A stretch of DNA of 64,000 nucleotides from an uncultured Alistipes sp. Lineage in GTDB: Bacteria > Bacteroidota > Bacteroidia > Bacteroidales > Rikenellaceae. The DNA lies in assembly GCA_949288735.1 (NCBI GenBank), contig CASELE010000007.1, positions 1,737 through 65,736 on the forward strand, in the 5' to 3' direction. The notes beneath the pieces were generated by a model, which saw nothing but the letters and a program-made list of their open reading frames with translations, made no database searches and was not told where the DNA came from. This document shows positions 1,753-54,041 of this stretch, in pieces (position 1 is the stretch's first letter; each line of letters begins with the position of its first letter). The translations under genes were made by a program, and so were the position numbers.

Positions 1753-2568
1753 ATGTCAGTAGAGAGCAGTGTGAGGGCCGTGACGACCTATCGCCTGATG
1801 GAGATGAAGCAGCGCGGCGAGAAGATAGCGATGCTCACCTCGTACGACTATTCGATGGCCCGTATCGTCGATGCGGCGGGCGTGGATGTGATTCTGGTGG
1901 GCGATTCGGCCGCCAACGTGATGGCGGGCTACGAGACGACGGTGCCCATCACGCTCGACATGATGATCTACCACGCCCGTTCGGTGGTGCGGGCCGTGCG
2001 GCGCGCGCTGGTGGTGGTCGACCTGCCGTTCGGCACCTATCAGGGCAATTCGAAGGTGGCGCTCGATTCGGCCGTGCGCATCATGAAGGAGACCGAGGCC
2101 GACGCCGTGAAGATCGAGGGCGGCGAGGAGATTCTCGAGTCGGTGCACCGCATCCTTTCTGCCGGCATACCCGTGATGGGACATCTCGGACTGACACCCC
2201 AGTCCATCCACAAGTTCGGCACCTATGCCGTCCGGGCCCGCGATGAGGCCGAGGCGGCGAAGCTCGTGCGCGACGCGCATCTGCTGAGCGAGGCGGGCTG
2301 CTTCGGCATAGTGCTGGAGAAGATTCCGGCGCAGCTCGCCGCGCGGGTTACCGCCGAGGTCCCGGTCCCCACGATCGGCATCGGAGCGGGCGGCGCCTGC
2401 GACGGTCAGGTGCTCGTCATCCACGACATGCTGGGCATCAACAAGGGCTTTTCGCCCCGGTTCCTGCGCCGTTACGCCGATCTGCACGAAGTGATGACCG
2501 ACGCCGTGACGCGCTATGTCTCCGATGTGAAGGCGTGCGATTTTCCCAATACCGAGGAGCAGTATTAG
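1753..2568 (+). CDS. panB: 3-methyl-2-oxobutanoate hydroxymethyltransferase
   Basis: [34 protein letters not shown]; start placed at ATG 1753 (MSVESSV). Confidence 0.97.
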
Positions 2569-2596
2569 ACGTTTGGACGTTCGCCCGTACGAAGCG

Positions 2597-2627
2597 AGGC
2601 GGGGAGACCGGTCCGGTCTCCCCGCCT
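2597..2627. terminator. Hairpin between convergent panB and symporter, probable bidirectional terminator
   Basis: 14-bp stem AGGCGGGGAGACCG/CGGTCTCCCCGCCT with 3-nt loop. Confidence 0.7.
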
Positions 2628-2652
2628 TTGGCACTGCGGCCCTTGAATCAGG

Positions 2653-3525
2653 TCAGGCGTAGCCGCGCCGACGGTCGTGCAGCCGCAGCAGCTGCAGGTA
2701 GCCGAGCAGCACGATGTTCATCACCAGAGCGTAGACAATGGCCGGTATGGCCATCTCGCCGCTGTCGAAAAGCAGGGGAGAGGTGGCTATGGCGATTGCC
2801 TGGGCCGCATTCTGCATGCCGATTTCGATGACGATGGTCCGGCGTACGGCGCTTTCCAGCCGGAGAAGTCGGGCGAGGAGCGCACCGGCGGCCGAGGCGA
2901 TGACCAGAAGCAGCAGCGCGGCCAGTCCGAGCGAAGCGATGTGTCGCGCGATGGTCCCGGCGTACTGCACGAAGAATACGGCGGCCAGGAGCAGCAGGGC
3001 GGGAAAGGCGAAGCGGCCGAGCACCGCATGTACGCGGAGTGCCGCCGCCGGCCAGCGGCGGCGGAAGAGCGAGCCGGCGGCCATGGGCAGGAAGACCATG
3101 GCGATGTTCTGTACGAGCAGCCGGCCTGCCGGCAGGTCGATCGCCGTCTCGGTGCGCACCGAGACGTAACGGGCCACGAAATCCATGATGAGCGGCAGCG
3201 TGAAGAGCGTGATGACGCTGCTCATGGCCGTAAGCGTGACCGACAGAGCCACGTCGCCGCGGGCGAGCATCGAGAAGACGTTCGACGAGCTGCCTCCCGG
3301 ACAGCAGGCCAGGAGCATCAGTCCCATGAAGCAGAACGGTGGCAGGTCGAGCGTCAGCCCCACGCCGAAGGCTGCCAGCGGGAGCAGTACGAGCTGGCCG
3401 AAGAGCCCCGTCGCCACGGCCATGGGATGGCGGGCGACACGGGCGAAGGAGCCGCGGTCGAGCTCGATGCCGAGCTGGAACATCAGCACGAGCAGGATGG
3501 GAAGTACGATCCAAAGTGTGTTCAT
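2653..3525 (-). CDS. Bile acid:sodium symporter (BASS) family transporter
   Basis: C-terminal 290 aa of ORF 2653..5925; MFQLGIEL, ACCPGGSSSNVF, EIGMQNA motifs, ~9-10 hydrophobic segments. Confidence 0.9.
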   Translation of the reverse strand: MNTLWIVLPILLVLMFQLGIELDRGSFARVARHPMAVATGLFGQLVLLPLAAFGVGLTLDLPPFCFMGLMLLACCPGGSSSNVFSMLARGDVALSVTLTAMSSVITLFTLPLIMDFVARYVSVRTETAIDLPAGRLLVQNIAMVFLPMAAGSLFRRRWPAAALRVHAVLGRFAFPALLLLAAVFFVQYAGTIARHIASLGLAALLLLVIASAAGALLARLLRLESAVRRTIVIEIGMQNAAQAIAIATSPLLFDSGEMAIPAIVYALVMNIVLLGYLQLLRLHDRRRGYA

Positions 3526-3530
3526 GGCGG

Positions 3531-3647
3531 CAAAGATAGCGTTTTTTCCTCCATGCCGTCGTCCGGAAGCGACGCTCCGGAGAGGAAACTTTTTTCGGCC
3601 GCGCAGAGCGAATCCGTAGGCCGTTTGGAAAAAAATGTGTACTTTTG
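3531..3647. promoter_or_regulatory. Divergent Bacteroidota sigma-A promoters (symporter / guaB)
   Basis: TATCTTTG on minus at 3531-3538; TACTTTTG on plus at 3640-3647 with TTTG at 3624-3627. Confidence 0.7.
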
Positions 3648-3672
3648 CACGCAACAAAAATCCACGTTCATC

Positions 3673-5148
3673 ATGTCTTTCATCAATGAAAGGGTGCAGC
3701 CCGAGGGTCTTACCTTCGACGACGTGCTGCTCGTGCCCGCCTATTCGGAAGTGTTGCCGCGTGAGGTCTCCGTCGAGACCCGTTTTTCGCGAAATATCGG
3801 ACTCAATATCCCCGTCGTCTCTGCGGCCATGGACACCGTGACCGAGGCGCCGCTGGCCATCGCTCTGGCGCGCGAGGGAGGTATCGGTGTGATTCATAAG
3901 AATATGTCCATCGCCGAGCAGGCGGCTCAGGTGCGTCGCGTGAAGCGTGCCGAGAATGGCATGATCTACGATCCGATCACCATCACGAAGGACCATACCG
4001 TGGGCGATGCCCTGCATCTGATGCAGGAGAACCGCATCGGCGGCATCCCGGTGGTCGATGCCGAGAACCGTCTTATCGGTATCGTCACCAACCGCGATCT
4101 GCGCTTCCAGCGCGACATGGGGCGCCGCATCGACGACGTGATGACCAAGGAGGGGCTCGTGACGACCCACAGCTCCGAACTGGAGCATGCGGCCGGCGTG
4201 CTGCTCGCCAACAAGATCGAGAAGCTTCCCGTCGTGGACGAGAAGGGGCACCTCGTGGGTCTGATCACCTACAAGGATATCACCAAGGTGCAGGATCATC
4301 CCAACGCCTGCAAGGATGCCAAGGGGCGGCTGCGCGTGGCGGCGGGCGTGGGCGTGACGGCCGACGCGATGGAGCGCGTGCGTGCGCTCGTTGAGGAGGA
4401 TGTCGACGCCGTGGTGCTCGATTCGGCCCATGGCCATTCGGCCAATGTGGTGCGTCTGCTCCGTGAAATCAAGAGCACCTATTCGAATATCGACGTGGTT
4501 GTGGGCAACATCGCTACGGCCGAGGCGGCGAAATACCTCGCCGAGGCGGGAGCCGACGGCGTGAAGGTGGGTATCGGCCCGGGTTCGATCTGCACCACGC
4601 GTATCATTGCCGGTGTGGGCGTGCCGCAGCTTTCGGCCATCTATGCAGCCTCCTCCGAAGCGAGGAAGCTGGGCGTGCCCGTCATCGCCGACGGCGGTCT
4701 GCGCTATTCGGGCGATATTGTCAAGGCGCTCGCCGCTGGCGGCGACTGCGTGATGATCGGTTCGATGTTTGCCGGTACGGAGGAGGCTCCGGGCGAGACG
4801 ATTATCTACAACGGCCGCAAGTTCAAGTCCTACCGCGGCATGGGCTCGATCGACGCCATGAAGGCCGGATCGGCCGACCGCTACTTCCAGAAGGATTGCG
4901 AGGCGAATGTCAGCAAGCTCGTGCCCGAGGGCATCGTGGCCCGCGTGCCCTACAAGGGGACGCTCAGCGAGACGGTCTACCAGCTCATCGGCGGCATCCG
5001 TGCCGGTATGGGCTACTGCGGCGCGAAGGATATCGCGGCGCTGCAGAAGGCTCAGTTCATCCGTATCACGGCTTCGGGTATGACCGAGAGCCATCCCCAC
5101 GACGTGGCCATCACGCGCGAGGCGCCCAACTACTCGAGCGAGCGGTAG
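3673..5148 (+). CDS. guaB: IMP dehydrogenase
   Basis: [13 protein letters not shown] pair, catalytic [17 protein letters not shown]. Confidence 0.98.
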
Positions 5149-5223
5149 GGCGGAAGAGCCGCGGCGTTGTCTCTGCGGCGACCCGCCGGCCGGTGAACGA
5201 CCAACGTGAAACACATCAAGAAG

Positions 5224-6753
5224 ATGCAGGAAAAGATATTGATTCTCGACTTCGGTTCGCAGTACACGCAGCTCATCGCGCGGCGTGTACGCGAGTTGAA
5301 TGTATACTGTGAAATACATCCTTTCAACCGTATACCGGAGCTTGACGCCTCGGTACGGGGCGTGATCCTCTCGGGCAGCCCCTATTCGGTACGCGACGCC
5401 CAGGCTCCCGTGCCCGACCTGAGTGCCATCAAGGGCCGTCTGCCTCTGCTGGGTGTCTGCTACGGGGCGCAGTACCTCGCGCAGGCCTACGGCGGCGAGG
5501 TGCAGCCCGCGGCGAGCCGCGAATACGGACGCGCGATGCTCACGGTGGGCGATGCGCACGACCCGCTCATGGAGGGACTGCCGCAGACGACGCAGGTGTG
5601 GATGTCGCACGGCGATACGATCACGCGAGTTCCGGAGAACTATCGGCTGATTGCCAGTACGGAAGATGTGAAGGTGGCCGCCTATCGCATCGAGGGCGAG
5701 CGGACGTGGGCCATCCAATTCCATCCCGAAGTCTACCATTCGACCGACGGGACGCAGCTGCTCAGAAACTTCGTTGTCGGCATCTGCGGCTGTGCGCAGT
5801 CGTGGACGCCCGAAGGCTTTGTCGAGAGCACGGTGCGCGACCTGCGTGCGCGGCTGGGCGACGACCGCGTGGTGCTGGGGCTCTCGGGCGGTGTCGATTC
5901 GACGGTTGCGGCCGTGCTGCTTCACCGGGCCATCGGGCAGAACCTCTACTGCATCTTCGTCGATTCGGGCCTGCTGCGCAAGAACGAGTTCGAGGAGGTG
6001 CTCGCCTCCTACGAGCAGATGGGCCTCAATGTGCGGGGCGTGCAGGCCTCGGCGAAGTTTCTCGGCGATCTGGCGGGCGTGACCGATCCGGAGCGCAAGC
6101 GCAAGATTATCGGCCGCGACTTCGTGGAGGTATTCAACGAGGAGGCGCAGCGGCTGCGCGACGTGCGCTGGCTGGCGCAGGGAACCATCTATCCCGACGT
6201 CATCGAGTCATGTTCGGTGAACGGCCCTTCGGCCACCATCAAGTCGCACCACAATGTGGGCGGTCTGCCCGAAAAGATGAACCTGCGCATCGTCGAGCCG
6301 CTGCGGCTGCTCTTCAAGGACGAGGTGCGCCGGGTAGGCCGTTCGCTCGGCATCTCCGAGCAGCTGATCGGCCGCCATCCGTTTCCGGGTCCCGGCCTGG
6401 CAATCCGCATCCTGGGCGAGGTGACGCCCGAGAAGGTGGAGATTCTGCAGAACGTGGACCGCATCTACATCGATGCGCTGCGTACGGCCGGTCTCTACGA
6501 CAAAGTCTGGCAGGCGGGAGCCATCCTGCTGCCCGTGCGGAGCGTGGGCGTGATGGGAGACGAGCGCACCTACGAAAACTGCGTGGCGCTGCGTGCCGTC
6601 ACCTCGACCGACGGCATGACGGCCGACTGGGTCCATCTGCCCTATGAATTCCTGGCCGATCTTTCGAACGAGATTATAAACAAGGTACGCGGCGTGAACC
6701 GCGTCGTCTACGACATCTCCTCGAAACCGCCCGCCACGATCGAGTGGGAGTAG
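5224..6753 (+). CDS. guaA: GMP synthase (glutamine-hydrolysing)
   Basis: [47 protein letters not shown]. Confidence 0.98.
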
Positions 6754-6760
6754 ACGTCCG

Positions 6761-6794
6761 GAGACCCGCGCCGAAAGGTGCGGGTCTCTTTTTT
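6761..6794 (+). terminator. Rho-independent terminator of guaBA
   Basis: GAGACCCGCGCC-GAAA-GGTGCGGGTCTC then T6. Confidence 0.85.
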
Positions 6795-6824
6795 GTCGGG
6801 ATGCGCGGAGCGGGTGTCGGCGGT

Positions 6825-6893
6825 TTGTCATCCTCGCGTCGCGCCGATGTCATGTCCGTGATATGCGATTGTAACGGCTCTCCGGTAGTTTTG
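6825..6893 (+). promoter_or_regulatory. Promoter of TonB receptor operon with Pho-box-like half-sites
   Basis: TTGTCAT 6825-6831, ATGTCAT 6847-6853, TTGTAAC 6869-6875 (22-nt spacing); TAGTTTTG box 6886-6893. Confidence 0.5.
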
Positions 6894-6921
6894 CGGCGTG
6901 AAAACCGTAAAAGACACAATC

Positions 6922-9741
6922 GTGAAGAGACTATCGCTACGTAACCTGTTCCTGACTGCGGCACTGCTGCTGGCCGCTCCCCTTTCGTTTGCGCAGAACA
7001 GCATCGAAGGCATCGTGACCGATGCCTCGACGGGACTGCCCGTCGTCGGTGCCACCGTAATCGTTTCGGGTACGACGAAGGGAACGGCGAGCGGTGCGGA
7101 CGGCAGCTACCGTCTGAGCGGCCTGGCCGACGGCACCCATGCGCTCGACATATCGATGATCTCCTACGAGACGCAGCACATCGGAGGCGTCGAACTGCGG
7201 GGCGGACGGACGGTGCGCATCGATGCGGCCCTTGCCGTGCAGAGCGAGCAGATCGGCGACGTGGTGGTGACGGCCGTGCGCCGCACGGGCTCCGAGGTGG
7301 CCGTGAACCGTGATGTCCGCGAGGCGATGATGGTCGTCAGCGGCATCTCGAGCCAGATGATAGGCAAGACGCAGGACCGCGACGCGGGCGAGGTGGTGCG
7401 CCGTATCCCGGGCATCTCGCTCGTGGACGACAAGTTCATCATCGCACGCGGCCTCTCGCAGCGCTACAACAACGTGTGGGTGAACAATGCCGCCGTTCCC
7501 AGTTCTGAGGCCGATTCGCGCGCCTTCTCCTTCGACATCATTCCGGCTGGACAGATCGAGAATATCATGGTACTCAAGTCGCCCGCACCCGAAGTGCCGG
7601 CCGACTTTTCCGGAGGATTCATCAAGATAGCCACGAAGGACATGCCCGCCGGCGACGAGGCGTCTATTACCTATTCGACCGGATTCAATACGGCGACCCA
7701 CTTCGGCGGTTTCCTTCACAATCCGGGGTCCGCGGGCGACCTCTTCGGTTTCGGCGGCGGCACCCGCATGATGCGGGGCGGCATGTCGGGTGCCTACGAC
7801 AACGGCGATGCCGCCTTCGTGAGCGAGATGACGCGTCACGGATTCGACAACGACTGGAGCGTCCGGCGCCGGAGCGCCGTGCCCGACCAGCGCCTTTCGG
7901 CCTCGTTCGGACGCCTGTGGCAACTGGATCGGGAGAGCCGTTTCGCCCTGACCGGGGCGGTGAACTACAGCTACGTTGAGCGCGCCTATACCGACATGTC
8001 GAACGTGCGCTACGGCGTGTGGAACAAGACAGCCGACAAACCCGTCTACCTCTACAACTACACCGACGATCAGTATCAGACCAATGTCAAGCTGGGGGCG
8101 ATGCTCAACCTGGCCTACGTACGGGAGCGGAGCCGGTACTATTTCCGCAACATCTTCAACCAGATAGGCCAGCAGCGGTATACGTTCCGCGAGGGGTGGC
8201 AGAACATCTCGTCGCGCTACGATCAGCAGAAGGCCGAGTATCTGTATTCGAGCCGCAGTTCCTACAACGGTCAGTTCGCCGGCGTGCACACGTCCGATGC
8301 CGGTCGTCTCGACTGGAATATAGGCTACGCCTACGCCAACAAGCTGCTGCCCGACCGCCGCATCATCAACCGGCTCGAGAACGACATCTACGGCGATGAC
8401 TACTATGGCATGATGCGCATCGATCAGAACGAGATGCAGCGCGACTTCACCCGTCTCGACGAACACATCGTCTCGGCGGCCGTGAACTACGAACACACAT
8501 TCCGCGAAGGTCGTCCGTTCGCTCCCGTACTCAAGGTGGGCGCCTACGGCGAATACCGCACCCGCAGGTACCGCGCGCGCTCCTACTACTACCGCTTCAA
8601 CGCTTCGAACCTGCCCGTGGACTTCGCCTACGGAGATCCGGTATCGCAGATTCTTACCGAAGCCAACTACGGTGCAGACCGCCTCTATCTCTACGACGAC
8701 AGCGACAATACGGACAGCTACGAGGGTTCGAACCGGCTGGCCGCAGCCTACGCGGCCGTAAGCCTGCCGCTGGGACGTCTGAACATCTATGCGGGTGTAC
8801 GTTTCGAACACAGCGACATGACATTGACGAGCTATACGCGCAAGAACGAATGGACCTCGCGCGACCGTGACTACACCTTCGACGACCTCTTCCCCTCGGT
8901 GAACGCCACCTTCGAGATCTCGGAGAAGCACCAGCTGCGCGCCGCCTACGGCATGTCGACCAATCGCCCCGAATTCCGCGAGGTGTCGGCCTCGACCTTC
9001 TACGATTTCGACCTCTTCTCCACGATCATGGGTAACCCCGACCTGTCGGCCGCCTACATCCAGAATGCCGATCTGCGTTACGAGTGGTATCCGTCGGCCG
9101 GAGAGAGCATTTCGCTGTCGGTCTTCTACAAGCACTTCCGCAACCCGATCGAGACGACGATCCGCGATGCGGGCGGAAGCTACACCTATACCTTCGAGAA
9201 TGCCGAGCGCGCCCGGGCCTACGGTATGGAACTCGACGTGCGCAAAAATCTGGACTTCATAGGCATGCGTGACTTCTCGCTCTCGCTCAACCTCTCGCTC
9301 ATCGAGAGCCGGGTCTTCTTCGACGACGCTTCGCTCGAACACGACCGCCCCATGCAGGGACAGTCGCCCTATATCGTCAACTGCGGCCTCTTCTACCAGC
9401 CGCAGCGGGCCGGGCTGACCGTCGGTGTGCTCTATAACCGCATCGGCAAGCGTATCATCGGCATCGGCCGCTCCGACCTCTCGTCGGGAGGCAGCGTCGA
9501 CAACGACATCCCCGACATGTACGAGATGCCGCGCGATGCGCTCGACCTGGTGGTCACCAAGTCGCTCGGCAAGCGCTGGGAGCTGCGCCTGAGCCTCAAG
9601 GATCTTATCTGTGACCGGGTGGAGCTGTGCCAGTTCCCGCAGTTCACCGGTGCGGACGGTGCGGTGCACGAGCGCAAGGAGGTGACCAAGAGCTACGACC
9701 CGGGGCGCAGCTTCGTCATCGGAGCCTCGGTGAAGTTTTGA
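6922..9741 (+). CDS. TonB-dependent receptor with N-terminal carboxypeptidase-regulatory-like domain
   Basis: Signal peptide from GTG 6922; plug region DAGEVVRRIPGISL..RGLSQRY; C-terminal ASVKF. Confidence 0.93.
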   Translation: MKRLSLRNLFLTAALLLAAPLSFAQNSIEGIVTDASTGLPVVGATVIVSGTTKGTASGADGSYRLSGLADGTHALDISMISYETQHIGGVELRGGRTVRIDAALAVQSEQIGDVVVTAVRRTGSEVAVNRDVREAMMVVSGISSQMIGKTQDRDAGEVVRRIPGISLVDDKFIIARGLSQRYNNVWVNNAAVPSSEADSRAFSFDIIPAGQIENIMVLKSPAPEVPADFSGGFIKIATKDMPAGDEASITYSTGFNTATHFGGFLHNPGSAGDLFGFGGGTRMMRGGMSGAYDNGDAAFVSEMTRHGFDNDWSVRRRSAVPDQRLSASFGRLWQLDRESRFALTGAVNYSYVERAYTDMSNVRYGVWNKTADKPVYLYNYTDDQYQTNVKLGAMLNLAYVRERSRYYFRNIFNQIGQQRYTFREGWQNISSRYDQQKAEYLYSSRSSYNGQFAGVHTSDAGRLDWNIGYAYANKLLPDRRIINRLENDIYGDDYYGMMRIDQNEMQRDFTRLDEHIVSAAVNYEHTFREGRPFAPVLKVGAYGEYRTRRYRARSYYYRFNASNLPVDFAYGDPVSQILTEANYGADRLYLYDDSDNTDSYEGSNRLAAAYAAVSLPLGRLNIYAGVRFEHSDMTLTSYTRKNEWTSRDRDYTFDDLFPSVNATFEISEKHQLRAAYGMSTNRPEFREVSASTFYDFDLFSTIMGNPDLSAAYIQNADLRYEWYPSAGESISLSVFYKHFRNPIETTIRDAGGSYTYTFENAERARAYGMELDVRKNLDFIGMRDFSLSLNLSLIESRVFFDDASLEHDRPMQGQSPYIVNCGLFYQPQRAGLTVGVLYNRIGKRIIGIGRSDLSSGGSVDNDIPDMYEMPRDALDLVVTKSLGKRWELRLSLKDLICDRVELCQFPQFTGADGAVHERKEVTKSYDPGRSFVIGASVKF

Positions 9742-9789
9742 CGGATGCAACGGAAACGATAACCTTCCTATACAATTTTCACATCTATT

Positions 9790-11523
9790 ATGAAAAAGTT
9801 TTTCTTTGCAGCCCTTGCTGCGGCAGCCCTGATGACGGTGGGCTGCGATGACGGAGACGAGAGCACCGGCGGCGAGGCCGTGCGTCTGGCCAAGCCCATC
9901 CTCTCTTCGGAGAATGTGACAGAGGAGTCCTTCACGGTGCGTTGGTCGGCCGTGGAGAATGCCTCGGCCTATTCGTACAGCGTAAATGACGGCGATGCCG
10001 AACAGACGACCTCCACGTCGGTGACCATCCAGACCACCGAGGGCGTGACGAGCTATCGGGTAGAGGTCACGGCTCTTTCGGACGACGAGACCCTGTGGCT
10101 CGATTCGGAGACGGCCACCATCACCGTTTCGACCACGGGCGAGCAGCCCGCTGGCGGCGACCTTTCGGAGATTCTCTTCGGAGATGGTACGCAGATCGGC
10201 AACGGCGATGCCGAGTTCGAAATCCGCGGCGAGTACACGCTGCCCAAAGGCACCTATACGCTGAAGGGCTGGGTATACATCTGCGAAGGTTCCAAGCTGA
10301 CGCTCGAGCCCGGTACGGTCATCCGCGGCGACAAGGAGACGCAGGCTACCCTCATCGCGGAGCGCGGCGGCCGGCTCATCGCCCAGGGTACGGCCGACGA
10401 GCCCATCGTCTTCACCTCGGCACAGCCCGCCGGCCAGCGTCGTCCGGGCGACTGGGGCGGTATCATCCTCTGCGGTCGCGCCCGCAACAACAAGACCGAG
10501 ATGGCCATCGAGGGCGGTCCCCGTTCGAAGCACGGCGGCAACGACGACAGCGACAGCTCGGGCGTGCTGAGTTACGTGCGCGTGGAGTTCGCGGGCTATC
10601 CCTTCCAGACCGACGAGGAGATCAACGGCATCACGCTCGGCTCGGTAGGTTCGGGCACGAAGATCGACCACGTGCAGGTATCCTACTCGAACGACGACTC
10701 CTTCGAGTGGTTCGGCGGAGCGGCCGACGCCAAGTATCTCGTCGCTTACCACGGCTGGGACGACGACTTCGATACGGACAACGGTTTCTCGGGCAACGTG
10801 CAGTTCGCCCTCGTGGTCCGCAACCCCCGTCTGGCCGATACCTCCGTGTCGAACGGCTTCGAGAGCGACAACAACGGCGACGGTACGGCAGTCGAGCCCT
10901 ATACCTCGTGCGTCTTCTCGAACGTCACCTTCGTAGGCCCCATCGGTCAGGATCCCGCCTTCGAGAATACCACCTCCTACATCAACGGCGGTGACTACAA
11001 CCCGAACAACGGTTCGAAGCTCGGCCAGTTCCAGTCGGCCATGCAGATCCGCCGCAATTCGCACCTCTCCTGCTTCAACTCGGTGGCCATGGGCTATCCC
11101 GTGGGCCTGATCATCGAGAACGACAAGGGCTCGGCCACCCAGACGGCGGCCACGGAGGGCGACCTGGAACTGGGCAACATCATCTTCGCACAGATGGACG
11201 TGCTCGGCAGCGACAAGAACAAATCCTTCGTCGACGCCTATACGAACGACAGCGACAACATGGATCCCGACGCATCGCGCGAATCCTTCTCGGCCTCCTA
11301 CTTCAAGGGTATCGCGTCGAACCGCGTGCTCGATACGATCGATGAGCTGATGCTCGACGACGAGTATCGTCCGCAGGCCGGCAGCCCGCTGCTCAACGCC
11401 GCATCGTTCGAGAATGCCAAGCTCGCCGATTTCGAGAAGGTCTCCTATGCGGGAGCCTTCGCCCAGGGCGACAACTGGCTCGATGGGTGGACCGAATTCG
11501 ACCCTCAGAACGCGCAGTACTGA
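9790..11523 (+). CDS. Surface lipoprotein with FN3-like N-domain and repetitive beta-rich domain, partner of the TonB receptor
   Basis: Lipobox MTVGC followed by acidic DDGDE; FTVRWSAVENASAY (FN3-like); SGVLSYVRVEFAG..EINGITLGSVGSGT..DDSFEWFGG. Confidence 0.8.
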   Translation: MKKFFFAALAAAALMTVGCDDGDESTGGEAVRLAKPILSSENVTEESFTVRWSAVENASAYSYSVNDGDAEQTTSTSVTIQTTEGVTSYRVEVTALSDDETLWLDSETATITVSTTGEQPAGGDLSEILFGDGTQIGNGDAEFEIRGEYTLPKGTYTLKGWVYICEGSKLTLEPGTVIRGDKETQATLIAERGGRLIAQGTADEPIVFTSAQPAGQRRPGDWGGIILCGRARNNKTEMAIEGGPRSKHGGNDDSDSSGVLSYVRVEFAGYPFQTDEEINGITLGSVGSGTKIDHVQVSYSNDDSFEWFGGAADAKYLVAYHGWDDDFDTDNGFSGNVQFALVVRNPRLADTSVSNGFESDNNGDGTAVEPYTSCVFSNVTFVGPIGQDPAFENTTSYINGGDYNPNNGSKLGQFQSAMQIRRNSHLSCFNSVAMGYPVGLIIENDKGSATQTAATEGDLELGNIIFAQMDVLGSDKNKSFVDAYTNDSDNMDPDASRESFSASYFKGIASNRVLDTIDELMLDDEYRPQAGSPLLNAASFENAKLADFEKVSYAGAFAQGDNWLDGWTEFDPQNAQY

Positions 11524-11553
11524 TCCCGGAATCCACGGTGATTCCGTACGGCG

Positions 11554-11581
11554 GAGCCGGTCCTTCGGGACCGGCTCTTTC
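11554..11581 (+). terminator. Rho-independent terminator
   Basis: GAGCCGGTCC-TTCG-GGACCGGCTC-TTTC. Confidence 0.85.
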
Positions 11582-11697
11582 GTTTCCGGTCCGGCGAAAA
11601 CGGCGCGCAATTGTTCGTTTTCGCCGATTTTATGCTATCTTTGCGTACCGAATACCAATGCGTCCGGAGACGGACAAGAACTCTAAACGACGATACG

Positions 11698-14693: not shown

Positions 14694-14720
14694 AAGATTG
14701 CGTGTTGTTGTTTAACGATG

Positions 14721-14773
14721 CAAAGATCGGACGACACCACGACATAAACTGTCCGGGTGAATGTCTATTTTTG
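14721..14773. promoter_or_regulatory. Divergent promoters with central inverted repeat, candidate WYL operator
   Basis: GATCTTTG on minus 14721-14728 (1 mismatch); GACA-N5-TGTC at 14741-14753; TATTTTTG on plus 14766-14773. Confidence 0.5.
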
Positions 14774-14794
14774 CAGCATCTAAACAATGAAGCC

Positions 14795-15718
14795 ATGACT
14801 AAGAACGGAAAATGCCTCTGGATCGTCGAGACGCTGCTGCGTACCGACGGGCTGTCGCTGCGCGAGCTGAACGACCGTTGGATGCAGTCGTCGCTCTGCG
14901 ACGACGGCCGGCAGCTGCATGAACGCACCTTTGCGCGTTACAGGGAGTTCATCTCCTCGGAGTATGCCATCGACATCGAATATTCGCCGTCGACGAACAA
15001 ATATTTCATCGAAAATGCCGACGAGATACGCGACAATGCGCTCTATCGCTATCTGCTGTCGGCCTATCGTATCGCCGACCTGAACACGATGGCCATACAC
15101 CACCGGAACCGGCTGCTGCTCGAACCGACACCTACGGGGACGCAGCACCTTTCGCCGTTGCTGCAGGCCATCGACCGCGGTGCGACCGTACTCTTCGACT
15201 ACACCTCCTATTACGATGTGGAGCGGTTGCAGCACTGGGAGCTGATACCGTGTTTCCTGCGCATATTCGAGGGGCGCTGGTATCTGATAGCCGAATACAT
15301 GGACCACAGCAAGGCCAAGGTCTTCGCGCTGGAGCGAATCTCCGAACTGCGGATCGGAAGCAACCTCATGCAGCCCGTACGAGTCACCGATGCCGCGGTG
15401 TATTACGCCGACTGTTTCGGAATCATCCGCGAGGACCGGGCGCCCTCGCTCGTCCGTCTGTGGGCCGACCGGGAGCAGCGCTGCTACCTCCGCGCCCAGC
15501 CGCTCCATGAGTCGCAGCGCGAAGTCGAAACGGCCGACGACCACTCCCTCTTCGAGTATTGGGTGCGTCCCTCCTTCGACTTTTACCAGAAGGTTCTCTG
15601 GATGCGCGAGAAGGTGTGCATCGTCTCGCCCGACAGCGTACGCGGCGAGATGGCTGCCATCGTAGGGCGTATGGCAGCCATGTACGGGGCCGCTCCGCAA
15701 GGATCCGGTACGCGGTGA
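14795..15718 (+). CDS. WYL-domain transcriptional regulator (wHTH-WYL-WCX)
   Basis: N-terminal HTH-like GLSLRELNDRW..ERTFARYR; literal RWYLIA and FALERI; start at ATG 14795. Confidence 0.92.
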   Translation: MTKNGKCLWIVETLLRTDGLSLRELNDRWMQSSLCDDGRQLHERTFARYREFISSEYAIDIEYSPSTNKYFIENADEIRDNALYRYLLSAYRIADLNTMAIHHRNRLLLEPTPTGTQHLSPLLQAIDRGATVLFDYTSYYDVERLQHWELIPCFLRIFEGRWYLIAEYMDHSKAKVFALERISELRIGSNLMQPVRVTDAAVYYADCFGIIREDRAPSLVRLWADREQRCYLRAQPLHESQREVETADDHSLFEYWVRPSFDFYQKVLWMREKVCIVSPDSVRGEMAAIVGRMAAMYGAAPQGSGTR

Positions 15719-15826: not shown

Positions 15827-17275
15827 TCACTCCGTCCGGTAGCGGACGTCGATCCGCTTCACGATATCGATACCGCAGGCGGCGCGGCTCCCGGCATCCG
15901 TGACGTCGAATGTCCGGTTGAGCGGGATAAAGCAGAGATAGGTCCGCCCCTCGTGGCGGATGCGCGTCCTCGTCGTGGTCGCATCGGCATACTGGAGCAG
16001 CTCCTCGCGCGGAATGCGGTACCACGATACGATCCGGAATCCGCCCTTGCCATCCTCTTCTCTCTCGCACTCGGCGTAGATGTATGCCGAAGAGAAGAGG
16101 CATTCGGTGTGCAGATACTCGTAGTCGCCCGTTTCGCAGCAGAACTCCCAGCCGTCGCCGACACCGGTGCGGCGATACAGTTCGTCGGTCGTTATCGGCA
16201 GCCGGGAGAAGAGCGTGGGGATGCGGTCGTAGCGGTTCGTCTTGAACTCGAACCCGAGACGGTCGGGCCGCCCGTCGTTGAAACTGAAGAACCCGAAGAG
16301 ACAGGCGTCTTCGCGAATCGGCTCTCCGTGACACAGGTGTTCCAGCTCCGACTGGCGTAGGATGGTGAAGGTATGCCCCTCGTCCTCGTCGTCGTAGAGC
16401 AGCACCTCATAGCGGGCCGTGGTGACCCGATGCAGGGTGGTGTCGACATGAATGCGCGTGAGGATGTAGTCCTCGCCCAGTGTCTCGAAGTTCCAGTAGA
16501 CCGAGGTGCCGCATTCGACGGCGTCGGTCCAGAGCCCCTCGATGGCCGGATGCACCTTGTTCCTGCTGCTGGCCTCGTTGGCCCGGTAGAGGGCTTCGGA
16601 CGAGTAGTTGTTCCGCAGGTTCGCCAGTACCTCCTGCGTGAAGGAGATGAGATCCAGACGGGTGTAGAGCTCTCCGTCGCATATCCGCTGCATGTGGCTG
16701 CGGTATAGCATCTGCAGAAAGGGGGCGAAGCGGAAGATGGGACTGTTCTCGTAGAGCGGAATCAGACGGTCACGCAGTCTCGTCAGGTCGCTCTTCAGCA
16801 TGTCGGGCCCCGTGTCGCCCGCCTTGCTGAAATAGGTGGGCAGGATCTTGAGCGACAGGAGAAGGAGCAATGCGACGTCGCAATGGGCGCATCTCTCCGA
16901 CGCTTTCCGGATTTCGGGACTTACCCGCCCGGCATGTTCGGGATCGAAGCGGCAGCGCAGCATCTCGTTGATCGCATCGGTCTCCGCCAGTTTCGTGTGG
17001 CATATGGACCTCCAGAAGCGCGTTGCGTTGCGGTAGTCGGCCAGCAGACCGTCGAGGTCGATCTTCGCGCGTTCCTGCGCCTCGCAGCAGAACTCGTTGT
17101 AGACGCATCGGGCGATGAAGTCCGATTTCTTGTTGAATCCGTTGTTCTGCAGATTCATGTGCGTGTGGCGCGAGAGCTCGTAGGTCGTGTTGCGGATCAG
17201 CCTCAGACGGCGTATGTCGTTGAGCAGTTCGATGTGTGAGAGTTGGGTCTGTGCCATGGTCTTCTCGGTTTGCAT
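15827..17275 (-). CDS. Hypothetical 482-aa cytoplasmic protein
   Basis: Long ORF with its own TAACTTTG box (17283-17290, minus); no motif recognised. Confidence 0.75.
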   Translation of the reverse strand: MQTEKTMAQTQLSHIELLNDIRRLRLIRNTTYELSRHTHMNLQNNGFNKKSDFIARCVYNEFCCEAQERAKIDLDGLLADYRNATRFWRSICHTKLAETDAINEMLRCRFDPEHAGRVSPEIRKASERCAHCDVALLLLLSLKILPTYFSKAGDTGPDMLKSDLTRLRDRLIPLYENSPIFRFAPFLQMLYRSHMQRICDGELYTRLDLISFTQEVLANLRNNYSSEALYRANEASSRNKVHPAIEGLWTDAVECGTSVYWNFETLGEDYILTRIHVDTTLHRVTTARYEVLLYDDEDEGHTFTILRQSELEHLCHGEPIREDACLFGFFSFNDGRPDRLGFEFKTNRYDRIPTLFSRLPITTDELYRRTGVGDGWEFCCETGDYEYLHTECLFSSAYIYAECEREEDGKGGFRIVSWYRIPREELLQYADATTTRTRIRHEGRTYLCFIPLNRTFDVTDAGSRAACGIDIVKRIDVRYRTE

Positions 17276-17538
17276 GCCGCCGCAAAGTTAGCCAAACGCT
17301 CCGGACCTGCCATCGTCCGGGGGATTCCGTCTTCGGTGAGGCCGAACTTTCGTTCCCATCGGTCGTATACTACGGGAGAGTCCGATTCTACCCCGATATC
17401 CCGAATTCCGTCCTGCGGGTATGCCGGCCGGAGCAGGAAATCTTTCTACTTTTGACCGAGAATCTTGCGAACGGTTCGGTATCACGGTCACAGGCGAAAA
17501 AAGTCCGTGCCCGACGGTGCGCGTGCATGAAAAATCCC

Positions 17539-17546
17539 TATCTTTG
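17539..17546 (+). promoter_or_regulatory. TAnnTTTG promoter box driving the structured RNA and AT-rich cargo
   Basis: TATCTTTG. Confidence 0.65.
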
Positions 17547-17550
17547 CGAT

Positions 17551-17770
17551 TGCGGATCTGTGAGGGTCTGCGACAGGATAGATACGTGAATCTTAGGATT
17601 CCTGAACAACAAAACCGCCAATTTTGTCGGTTCCCGCTCGGGGACCGTACCTCAGGGAAGAATAAGCACGGTCTGCACACCATCGTACGGGTGCGGACTG
17701 CTTGTGATTCCATTCTGAGGGAGGGTGCTTGGCGGTGCCTGTTGTTCGGATGGATACGGCAGGTTCCGCA
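17551..17770 (+). ncRNA. Unidentified multi-stem structured RNA or leader (~220 nt)
   Basis: Nested pairings 17551-61/17759-70, 17600-10/17741-50, 17614-21/17729-36; hairpins 17628-47 and 17650-17720. Confidence 0.55.
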
Positions 17771-17798
17771 CCTTCTTGTTTGGATGTTAATTATGTAA

Positions 17799-19304
17799 TA
17801 TCAGCAAAATGATATACAAGAGTTCAGGCTCAAGTTGCTGGAAGAGGCAAGTAGCCTTCAGATAACTCAAGAGGAACGTGCACTGCTTAGACGGATACAG
17901 TCCATCAAAGGGGATAATGCGAAGTGGACTGCGTTGTCCAATGCATTGAATCCAACATTGCTTTTGACAGGTTCCGGTCCAGGAATGGTACCTCAAGCTA
18001 TCTTCCAAACCTTGCTGACAGCCACTCGTACGGCAGTTGAATATAAATCCATGCAGGGAGAATTGGATATAGAAGAAATACGCGCCATGTGGAATCTGCG
18101 CAAGCAGGATATGGAAATTATAAAAGCTCTGCGGCAGGATGCCATGGAGATTGTATTCAAATTGTATGACAAATATCATCTCGATGAATATGATCGTTTG
18201 ACAGAGGCTACGGCGAACATGTTCAGCTTGTGCATCTCCGAGCCGGATGTGAATAAGCGAATCCGTTTGCTCGAGGAGCATCGGAACGATTTCGGAATGC
18301 TTGCCGAATACTATTATTATTTGGGGATGGGATATTTGGAATCGGGGCAATATATAAAAGCCAAATCCTGTTTCGATACTTATTCTGACGTATATGCGAA
18401 AACCCCTCTCTTCCGTTGTGACGAAAAAGGTGGAACCATTGCTTTAGCAAGATTATCCTATGAAAAAAATTTGTCGCAAATTGAAAAGAAGCATCTTATT
18501 AATATCGTATTGCAGAATCTTCCCAATAATAGTGCCGCTCTGTTACAGTGTGCGATGATATACCTGTATGAATTGGAAGATGAAACCCAATGCCTGAATC
18601 TGTTGAGAAAAGGTCTGGACAATCCCTATGCCACCGACCGGGAGCTTCTGCTCATGACAGCGGTAGAACTGATGCCGGTAATGACAAGGCACAATGATGT
18701 AAATGGGCTGGTCCATAAATATTTGAGCGCTGGAACAATCGGATTCGATACTTATGTTGCGTATCTTATTCAATCGTCGGATTATGTTGGCGCTTTGTCG
18801 ACTCTCATATGCGTTGAAGATGTGAAAAAAAGACCAATCCTTGGGTCTGTCTTGGGCTGGCCAGCCGTAAGGTTGCATATTGTTTTACCTGAGCGCTTTA
18901 TATACGAAAGAGGCGATATAGCAGCAGTCTATTGGGAAACGCATAAGGCAAAAAAAATACTCATCAGAGAATTGCAGATAAAGGAGGAGGGTATAACTCT
19001 GAAGGAGATAGAGAAAGTGAGCTGTTTTGACCAATACAAGGATCTCAAATATCTGTTTTTTGAAACGCTTGTTCCCAATGAGATATTCGTTTTGAAAAGG
19101 GGAATTGATTACAATGAAATAGAGCAAGGAGAGTGGCCTCGGATGAGTCAGTTTGTTCTTTCCGGCCGTGATATAAAACAGATTGTGAAATTCTGTAAAA
19201 AGCATGAACCCGAAAATCGCGATACGGATCTCTTCTGTAAATCTAAAAGGAAAATCGGGTGGAAGAACCTGGGTGAAATCGACGGCGTAAAGTTTAAATT
19301 GTGA
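17799..19304 (+). pseudogene. 5'-truncated, AT-rich helical/TPR-like protein gene
   Basis: Frame opens after TAA 17796-98 in mid-protein-like sequence (YQQNDIQEFRLKLL) with no ATG; TPR-like EYYYYLGMGYLESGQYIKAKSCF. Confidence 0.6.
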
Positions 19305-19529
19305 TTATGTGCCTTCGCATGCCAAGGATCAAAGAGGTGAATACCTTAGAGTAGTGTTGTTTTTAAAGGATCATCTGACGGGTCTCATTTGTTGTATCGA
19401 TACGACAAGAAAAATAAAACGCTCCAATTCTGTTCGAGAATCGAGGCGGAAATGCTGACAGATAAGTAGAAGCAGGCAGAGCCTTGAGGTCGGTAACAGA
19501 GCCCCCTGTATATGTTGATATATGATAAT

Positions 19530-20331
19530 ATGAAGAAGTCGAGAATATTGGCCTTTATTTTAATCATGGCCTTTTCGTTAGTAGAAGTTCAGGCGCATGG
19601 GAGTTGGCAAAAGCATGCCGATGATGTACGTGAAGTCTTGGGATTGCAGAAAAATATAAAACTGGATGGATGGATGGATTAGATTTATCAGTTCAGACAT
19701 GATTGACAAAAGGGATTTTCATGAGCAATTGAAGAGGGAGTACGGATTGACCATGAAACATCGGCTGCTCTTTCATTGGGCCTATGACGCCGAGCCCTGG
19801 AGTGCGGATATTGAGAAAATAATCATAGATTATTGTGATTGGCGGGAATTGAATCAAGAAACGCATATCCGAATGTTTAAAGAGAAGCTCAGACGTGAGC
19901 AGAGAGAAAGAAATAGTAAAATACTGCAAAAGACCGAGGAAACATTTGGTCTCAGTCATGGCGGGCGTGATCGGACCTATTCCCGTTTCTTGGCATCAAT
20001 GGCCTATAACATTCATATATTAGGAGATTATACAACAGATAATAGCGATTTGGATGGCTTGTACGATTTTAATAGACTGGTCGGACAAATTATTGAAGAA
20101 CTTAAGAAGTTGGATTCTTCCCTGTATTTTGTGAAATTGAAGAGAGAGATTAATCAGATCAATAGTAAGTCTATAGGAGTTCAGGAGAAGGCAGATGAAC
20201 TCATGGCGTATATGAAAAAGTCTGTCCCCGGTTTTATCCAGAAGGCATATCAAGGGAGTTTAAAAAGAAGATTGGAAAAGAACGGATATACGTTTCAGAC
20301 TGTGGGCTTATTGCCAAAAATCCGAATGTGA
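19530..20331 (+). pseudogene. Secreted putative metal-dependent hydrolase, frameshifted at (TGGA)4
   Basis: ATG 19530 gives a signal peptide and stops at TAG 19680-82; removing one TGGA joins it to ORF 19666..20331 (265 aa). Confidence 0.8.
19663..19678 (+). repeat. (TGGA)4 tetranucleotide repeat at the frameshift site
   Basis: CTGGATGGATGGATGGATTAG read directly. Confidence 0.95.
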
Positions 20332-20339
20332 TTTGGCAA

Positions 20340-20373
20340 GACGCGACCCCGGCCGTGAGGCCGGGGTCGCGTC
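20340..20373. terminator. Long hairpin, probable bidirectional terminator at the right edge of the island
   Basis: GACGCGACCCCGGCC-GTGA-GGCCGGGGTCGCGTC, 15-bp perfect stem. Confidence 0.8.
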
Positions 20374-20414
20374 TTGCTGTATCCGTGTGCGGCGCCCGCG
20401 GGGCGGGACGGCCG

Positions 20415-51389: not shown

Positions 51390-54041
<2,652 letters not shown>

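Follow-up and report, generated by a model that had tools for sequence, protein, structure and literature searches.

The ON-type pbuE adenine riboswitch is a transcriptional riboswitch with a terminator/antiterminator expression platform, and the GEMM-I riboswitches for c-di-GMP are found in front of very varied downstream genes. The E. coli trp, his and pyrBI leaders are classical multi-segment attenuators, built on a chain of 1:2, 2:3 and 3:4 pairings. Antitermination depends on a protein in the RAT-terminator system of BglG/LicT, in the PyrR system and in the Bacteroides capsule leaders read by UpxY. The -7 promoter consensus of the Bacteroidetes is TAnnTTTG.

In a stretch of 64,000 nt from an uncultured Alistipes sp. 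(contig CASELE010000007.1, here called the window), positions 17551-17770 of the plus strand had been flagged by a sequence-only reading as a promoter-driven, multi-branched RNA of about 220 nt. Two readings were offered for it, a novel sRNA and a portable unit of promoter and leader placed before acquired cargo. The folded RNA flagged there is real and strongly conserved. Judged by its competing pairings and its gene arrangement, it would rather probably act in cis, as a 5' leader that gates downstream transcription by premature termination, and would be one copy of a large, uncatalogued family of Bacteroidales leaders.

Fold and conservation of the RNA

The minimum free energy (MFE) of the plus strand of 17551-17770 is -99.1 kcal/mol. 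Dinucleotide-shuffled versions give -73.5 +/- 4.3 kcal/mol (z = -5.95), and of 200 such versions none was as stable. The minus strand of the same region folds more weakly, at -79.1 kcal/mol (z = -4.64). All helices listed in the sequence-only reading can form in the window and are reproduced by the MFE fold of 17551-17770. Across 52 homologues, compensatory changes preserve four of the five (P2, P3, P4 and P5), and the outermost one is not conserved. This outermost helix would join 17551-61 to 17759-70; the 5' end and the tail are no more complementary within loci (-7.25 kcal/mol) than between them (-7.10 kcal/mol; permutation 0.33). In its place, 17550-73 forms a hairpin of its own (P0) and 17762-71 serves as the 3' arm of a predicted terminator. 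The elements of the folded RNA are the following.

17550-17573, plus strand: P0 hairpin (UUGCGGAUCU / GGGUCUGCGA), from folding of the 5' leader
17588-17601, plus strand: P1' hairpin, GAAUC-UUAG-GAUUC, from the fold; a short linker separates it from P0
17605-17746, plus strand: conserved core closed by P2 and P3, from covariation in 52 sequences
17605-17611 / 17740-17746, plus strand: P2, 7 of 7 pairs altered on both sides (52 sequences)
17614-17621 / 17729-17736, plus strand: P3, 6 of 8 pairs altered on both sides (52 sequences)
17628-17647, plus strand: P4, hairpin of 8 bp found in the long form only, from fold and homologue comparison
17650-17720, plus strand: P5, long imperfect hairpin, from fold and homologue comparison
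17670-17678 / 17690-17699, plus strand: tip helix of P5, 95.7% paired (model-fitted value), 8 of 9 pairs altered on both sides

A template RNA for a reverse transcriptase, either a retron msr-msd or a UG27-type ncRNA, would likewise be a structured ncRNA with apparent terminal complementarity that precedes AT-rich accessory genes. UG27 ncRNA arrays are reported from Bacteroidota prophages (bioRxiv 10.64898/2026.09.22.753630), and one locus of the present leader has two tandem copies. This identity is nevertheless extremely improbable, given that terminal complementarity in the style of retron a1/a2 is not conserved (p = 0.33) and that the motif reported for UG27, AUC-N7-UANAG, was not seen by eye in the RNA of the window. 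The flanks examined around the copies of the RNA contained no visible reverse transcriptase gene. For the genome of the window, which is 99.57% complete, a template RNA is excluded by the lack of any RVT_1 (PF00078) match.

Pair counts were taken from a covariance-model alignment of the 52 sequences, which was used because MAFFT followed by RNAalifold alone under-called the variable helices. Standard pairs fill 93.9% of the cells in this alignment, a percentage somewhat inflated by the fitting of the sequences to the model, against 74.4% in column shuffles and 36-46% when the partners were slid by 1-3 columns. Changes on both sides were observed in 32 of the 35 pairs (20.6 in the shuffles), and on no measure of pairing did any of 500 shuffles reach the observed value. 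The covariation among homologues that the sequence-only reading had named as a check is strong, and the margin over the controls is large despite the model-fitted alignment.

The helices have kept their pairing through extensive sequence change. P2 differs in almost every lineage, and the P4 stem changes about as often with its pairing maintained. Compensating variants of P3 are ACCGCCAA/UUGGCGGU, AUCGCCAA/UUGGCGAU, ACGACCAA/UUGGUCGU, UCCGGUAA/UUACCGGA and ACCAACAA/UUGUUGGU. The base of P5 varies between loci yet remains paired. Unpaired bases conserved in at least 85% of the members are A17612, A17613, U17623-25, G17724, G17725, G17727, C17738 and C17739; the most conserved of the unpaired bases are concentrated at the internal loop between P2 and P3 and at the P3/P5 junction. 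These nearly invariant junction bases would be the natural site for an effector, whether a metabolite or a protein.

The RNA occurs in two forms, a long one (the type of the window) with P2, P3, P4 and P5, and a short one in which P4 is missing. The position of P0 is occupied in most members by a hairpin of different sequence, and in members of the short form P1' is swapped for other small hairpins (AGCGUUAGCU, GGACUUUUGUCC and others). The first hairpin after the promoter box in the short-form loci L048, L052, L057 and L063 has the common loop GGGAGAAAUC on differing stems; the recurrence of this loop on different stems suggests a conserved loop contact.

Putative promoters and upstream element

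The real unit is longer on both sides than the roughly 220 nt first assigned to it. The 3' extension is a U-rich tract at 17772-85, described below; the 5' extension consists of a second promoter-like box and a co-varying upstream element (UE).

17447-17454, plus strand: putative distal promoter-like box TACTTTTG, a match to the TAnnTTTG consensus
17502-17512, plus strand: UE, AGUCCGUGCCC, able to pair with 17690-99 in the P5 tip (3' strand), from co-variation
17539-17546, plus strand: -7 box of the proximal promoter, TATCTTTG, a match to the TAnnTTTG consensus

Promoter boxes throughout this report are consensus matches only. The box that had been placed directly in front of the fold, TATCTTTG, was confirmed at 17539-46, and 30 of 32 loci have a TAnnTTTG box 60-96 nt 5' of the conserved core. 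Most long-form loci have a second such box 5' of the UE. A conserved block of about 30 nt, ATGAATCGCAATGCACCGTAATGGATTTGG, was seen about 150-190 nt upstream of P2 in L007, L029, L039, L041, L044 and L075, where it sits between the distal promoter box and a divergent gene for a protein of about 280 aa. The block may be an operator or may contain the promoter of that gene.

The position of the UE is fixed in the long-form loci, at -90 to -119 from P2 and between the distal and the proximal TAnnTTTG box. Its sequence varies by lineage in step with that of its partner: pairing energies are -13.5 kcal/mol with the own P5 strand and -12.0 kcal/mol with those of other loci, a difference reached in none of 5000 permutations. 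The UE:P5 duplex of the window has 11 bp, two G-U pairs among them, and a best energy of -17.7 kcal/mol. Such G-U pairs speak for a helix of plus-strand RNA and not for a DNA repeat.

The same arrangement may be read at the level of DNA, as an invertible promoter between the repeats formed by the UE and the 3' strand of P5, as a recombination site or as a single-stranded DNA structure of a mobile element. An inverted repeat of 10-12 bp does bracket the proximal promoter, and some copies adjoin tyrosine integrases. Against this, all matches of the covariance model except one are full-length and collinear, so that the bracketed segment is inverted in none. Furthermore, the tolerated G-U pairs are functional only in plus-strand RNA, most loci are without a recombinase, and the covariation of P2-P5 far exceeds the needs of a pair of repeats. 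A DNA element is therefore considered very unlikely.

Predicted terminator and competing pairings

The 3' part of the proposed leader contains three further elements, of which the first shares its strands with the core.

17732-17769, plus strand: predicted terminator hairpin, GCGG.GCCUGUUGUUC ... CGGCAGG.UCCGC, sharing 3' strands with P3 and P2; -22.6 kcal/mol as an isolated hairpin
17762-17771, plus strand: tail, GGUUCCGCAC, able to pair with the P5 tip (3' strand) as well, from co-variation
17772-17785, plus strand: U-rich tract, CUUCUUGUUUGG, from the sequence; weaker than the U5-8 runs of most homologues

The 5' arm of the terminator runs from GCGG, in the 3' strand of P3, through GCCUGUUGUU, in the 3' strand of P2. 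Since it borrows both of these strands, the terminator and the helices P2 and P3 exclude each other. In many long-form loci a corresponding hairpin of -20 to -25 kcal/mol stands immediately before the U run. Short-form members and one subgroup of the long form have a weak local terminator hairpin (-9 to -13 kcal/mol), so that termination there would rest on long-range pairing of the tail with P5, an unusual geometry for an intrinsic terminator. The U tract of the window is interrupted (CUUCUUGUUU).

The two states of the window RNA are nearly equal in energy, at -93.7 kcal/mol with P2 and P3 enforced and the tail free and -94.8 kcal/mol with the terminator enforced, these being computed equilibrium values and not co-transcriptional ones. 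In the same kind of equilibrium calculation, a transcript from the distal box gives -128.2 kcal/mol for the terminator state and -123.6 kcal/mol for the other, with the UE paired to P5 in the terminator-state fold.

The stretch of the tail that is complementary to the P5 tip comprises the 8-10 nt before the U run in both forms of the RNA. Taken over long and short forms, the tail pairs with the P5 3' strand of its own locus at -12.2 kcal/mol and with those of other loci at -9.2 kcal/mol (0 of 2000 permutations). Examples in which tail and P5 strand have changed together are ACUCCACAC/GUGUGGGGU, AUCUGCGCC/GGCGUGGAU, GUUUCACGCC/GGCGUGAAC and GUCCACGC/GUGUGGGC. Co-variation of both the tail and the UE with one internal strand fits intramolecular switching.

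An attenuator controlled by a leader peptide was considered and rejected. There is no ATG in 17547-17749; an AUG is present in the platform of 29 of the 52 members, and neither the peptides nor the frames are conserved.

Downstream genes and genomic context

The first downstream ORF lies on the same strand as the RNA in all 54 distinct cases, with a median distance of 39.5 nt from the U run to the ATG. TAnnTTTG was absent from all 54 spacers between RNA and ORF, in which only this consensus box was scanned for and other promoter types are possible.

This arrangement bears on the first of the two proposals of the sequence-only reading, a novel sRNA, and weakens it insofar as a free-standing molecule was meant. 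Such a molecule would be a trans-acting sRNA, about 235 nt long and closed by an intrinsic terminator of its own, with the gene behind it merely a neighbour. The promoter box and the terminator-like hairpin with its U run would both suit it, as would the presence of several copies per genome with highly conserved sequence, and the conserved single-stranded stretches could be seed regions. The terminator, however, requires strands that are also paired in the co-varying P2 and P3, and the tail and the UE co-vary with an internal strand, as expected of switching within one molecule. A same-strand gene, moreover, always follows at the short distance given above, with no promoter box between. On balance, a trans-acting sRNA is unlikely.

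The genes behind the RNA are unrelated between loci. They encode WG-repeat lipoproteins, small membrane proteins, Zn-ribbon proteins, nucleases of the PD-(D/E)XK and PLD types, DUF1232 and DUF6140 proteins, methyltransferase-like proteins and TPR-like proteins. The first downstream ORF has a signal-peptide-like or lipoprotein-like start in 26 of the 54 cases. Across the loci, the downstream genes have no common pathway or function that would indicate a ligand. Genes for DUF1232 and Zn-ribbon proteins recur near the RNA in several loci.

Cargo that is extremely varied, often mobile and devoid of a common function hinting at a ligand would also be compatible with a constitutive structured 5' UTR, which would travel with its cargo as an insulator, an mRNA-stabilising element or a processing element and would not switch in response to a signal. 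That the promoter box belongs to the conserved unit points the same way. What such a UTR hardly explains is the conservation of the competing pairings: the 5' strand of P5, the tail and the UE all retain complementarity to a single strand, and a terminator incompatible with the folded core is kept, the two states being near-equal in energy, which is hard to account for without switching. A constitutive element is thus held to be improbable, and the gating leader is the preferred reading in what follows.

The genes and features around the RNA in the window are the following.

15827-17275, minus strand: divergent upstream gene, 482 aa, no Pfam or NCBIfam match
17835-19304, plus strand: first cargo ORF with a TTG start, 489 aa, GC of the DNA about 42%; weak TPR match only
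19530-20331, plus strand: second cargo gene, secreted-looking; its ATG at 19530 is out of frame with the ORF 19666-20331
20336-20377, no strand assigned: perfect GC-rich inverted repeat of 19 bp with a 4-nt loop at the end of the low-GC block, from a repeat search

The AT-rich DNA that had been reported to begin after the RNA is confirmed by a fall in GC content from about 0.6 to about 0.42 over 17800 to 20330. In the second cargo gene, a signal-peptide-like start MKKSRILAFILIMAFSLVEVQAHG (19530-19680) and an ORF of 221 aa are split between frames at (TGGA)4, 19663-78. The inverted repeat at 20336-20377 stands where the low-GC block meets a convergent high-GC gene and is probably a two-way terminator. 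Island attachment sites were sought and dismissed, as no direct repeats surround the low-GC block 17800-20330 and the block ends at the GC-rich hairpin. PADLOC gave a single, sub-threshold match for the cargo of the window.

Homologues of the 482-aa protein are encoded upstream of the RNA in L026 and L032. A divergent protein of about 280 aa, without Pfam or NCBIfam match, is encoded upstream in 17 of 31 loci and is absent from the locus of the window; on visual inspection its N-terminus resembles an HTH and a hydrophobic segment is present. The upstream gene was rejected as a common partner of the RNA, as the 482-aa protein of the window is unrelated to the ~280-aa protein of the 17 other loci. 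A regulator with WYL/WCX domains is encoded at 14702-15718 (plus strand), about 2 kb upstream of the RNA of the window, and WYL/WCX homologues lie about 2 kb downstream of the RNA cores of L009 (1984-2922 nt) and L031 (1959-2903 nt).

Some copies are associated with mobile DNA. The RNA follows directly after a tyrosine integrase in L012 and after a PIF1-type helicase in L010, and most loci have no recombinase nearby. A predicted viral contig, IMGVR_UViG_3300029712_000347 (L075), bears a leader copy and a gene for a secreted protein of 663 aa within 2337-11692, flanked by a CI-like repressor and a tyrosine integrase on one side and by a Toprim/CHC2 primase on the other. The leader and gene of this contig resemble a module of cargo, placed at that end of the element where the integrase lies.

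Distribution and novelty

The search for paralogous copies by BLAST that the sequence-only reading had proposed gave a second copy in the same genome, with 76% identity, and copies in three relatives. An exact-pattern scan of one genome per species gave 27 loci, mostly labelled Alistipes, Rikenellaceae or Bacteroidales. A covariance model, R1, was built on the core and the 3' tail; its E-values come from a short calibration and are rough. Of 151 Alistipes genomes searched with this model, 50 contained 1-6 copies. The RNA was also found in 28 out of 150 genomes of other Bacteroidales, nearly all of different genera; both genome sets are sampled draws and not censuses. The locus L022 has two tandem leader copies (7251-7438 and 7640-7834) about 200 nt apart, each with a TAnnTTTG box and a terminator-like tail.

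The sequence-only reading could assign the RNA to no recognised class, and Rfam 15 agrees: the region has no match at the gathering thresholds, and at E <= 10 the only hit is a chance match to mir-593 with 14 bits. Apart from one unrelated tRNA, 20 homologous loci are also without Rfam match. The sole match in the window at a gathering threshold is a TPP riboswitch (RF00059) at 51510-51606 (plus strand), with 65.8 bits against a gathering score of 54.3. Comparison by blastn with plasmid and phage collections gave no match to the RNA; one IMG/VR contig, the L075 contig above, carries a leader copy. A description of the motif was found neither in the full-text literature nor in two candidate microbiome RNA catalogues, of which PMC8040213 was covered for 200 of its 408 supplementary files.

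Proposed mechanism

Of the two proposals of the sequence-only reading, the portable promoter-plus-leader unit in front of acquired cargo is the favoured one: the RNA is multicopy and Bacteroidales-wide, unrelated genes follow it on the same strand, and some copies lie by integrases. An element that brings its own promoter and a built-in stop signal to many unrelated accessory genes most likely decides their transcription. The model given here is built on the computed fold, covariation, competing pairings and their co-variation, near-equal state energies, gene arrangement, and variety and mobility of the cargo. From these we infer that the RNA is transcribed, that termination does take place, that switching has the direction described below and that an effector exists.

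Transcription would begin from the proximal TAnnTTTG box, 17539-46, and perhaps from the second box, 17447-54, too. The RNA would fold into the P0 and P1' hairpins and the core, with P2 and P3 closing the junction that bears P4 and P5. The tail GGUUCCGCAC would emerge about 25 nt past the core, followed by the U-rich tract. Pairing of the tail with the 3' strands of P3 and P2 would yield the intrinsic terminator, for which the core must open; the 3' strand of the P5 tip would be an alternative partner of the tail. As long as the core stays folded, the tail would be free, the polymerase would read through and the cargo gene would be on. With the core opened, the terminator would form and the gene would be off. 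A signal bound at the nearly invariant junction bases, be it a small molecule or a protein, may shift the balance. Transcripts begun at the distal box would include the UE as well, which may pair with the same strand of P5 and so favour the terminator state.

A more far-reaching version of the gating leader is tentative. The family may constitute an orphan riboswitch-like class, spread over Bacteroidales chromosomes, prophages and integrative elements, that answers to one global signal and puts large, changing sets of exported and accessory genes under common control. In this version the UE, the 5' strand of P5 and the tail would be three competitors for one hub strand, an unusual design, and the choice between the tandem promoters would thereby pre-set the switch.

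Gut Bacteroidales have extensive, rapidly changing repertoires of genes for surface, secreted and defence-like functions, most of whose regulation is unknown. The leader is conserved and mobile, occurs in roughly one third of the Alistipes genomes sampled and one fifth of those sampled from other Bacteroidales, and could be a common gate for these genes. With a large alignment, strong covariation, nearly invariant junction bases and both states specified, it is a well-defined target in the search for a new ligand or a new regulator that binds RNA. As a ready-made switch of expression it could also be of use in the engineering of Bacteroidales. The case indicates that Rfam is still without abundant RNA families from major gut bacteria.

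Comparison with known leader systems

The RNA resembles transcriptional riboswitches in having a co-varying domain in the 5' leader, conserved unpaired bases at the junction and a position directly 5' of a gene. As in those riboswitches, the 3' strands of the closing helices are predicted to double as the 5' arm of an intrinsic terminator. It differs from them in that its gene context suggests no ligand, that it matches no Rfam family in sequence or structure, and that the unit travels with its own promoter. Further differences are the co-variation of its tail with a strand of an internal hairpin and the presence of an upstream competitor, with a possible second promoter.

With the trp, his and pyrBI attenuators the leader shares the principle that several segments contest one partner strand and that one of the pairings is a terminator. 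Unlike these, it has no conserved leader peptide, and its three segments all target a single hub strand. The likeness to the leaders of BglG/LicT, PyrR and UpxY is that the terminator could be blocked when a factor stabilises the alternative structure; a conserved divergent gene for a protein of about 280 aa accompanies the 17 of 31 loci noted above. In contrast to those systems, no known RNA-binding antiterminator is encoded near the leader. The terminator/antiterminator leader is thus known as a kind; new are the family itself, the hub-strand design with an upstream competitor, and the role as a mobile front end for varied cargo.
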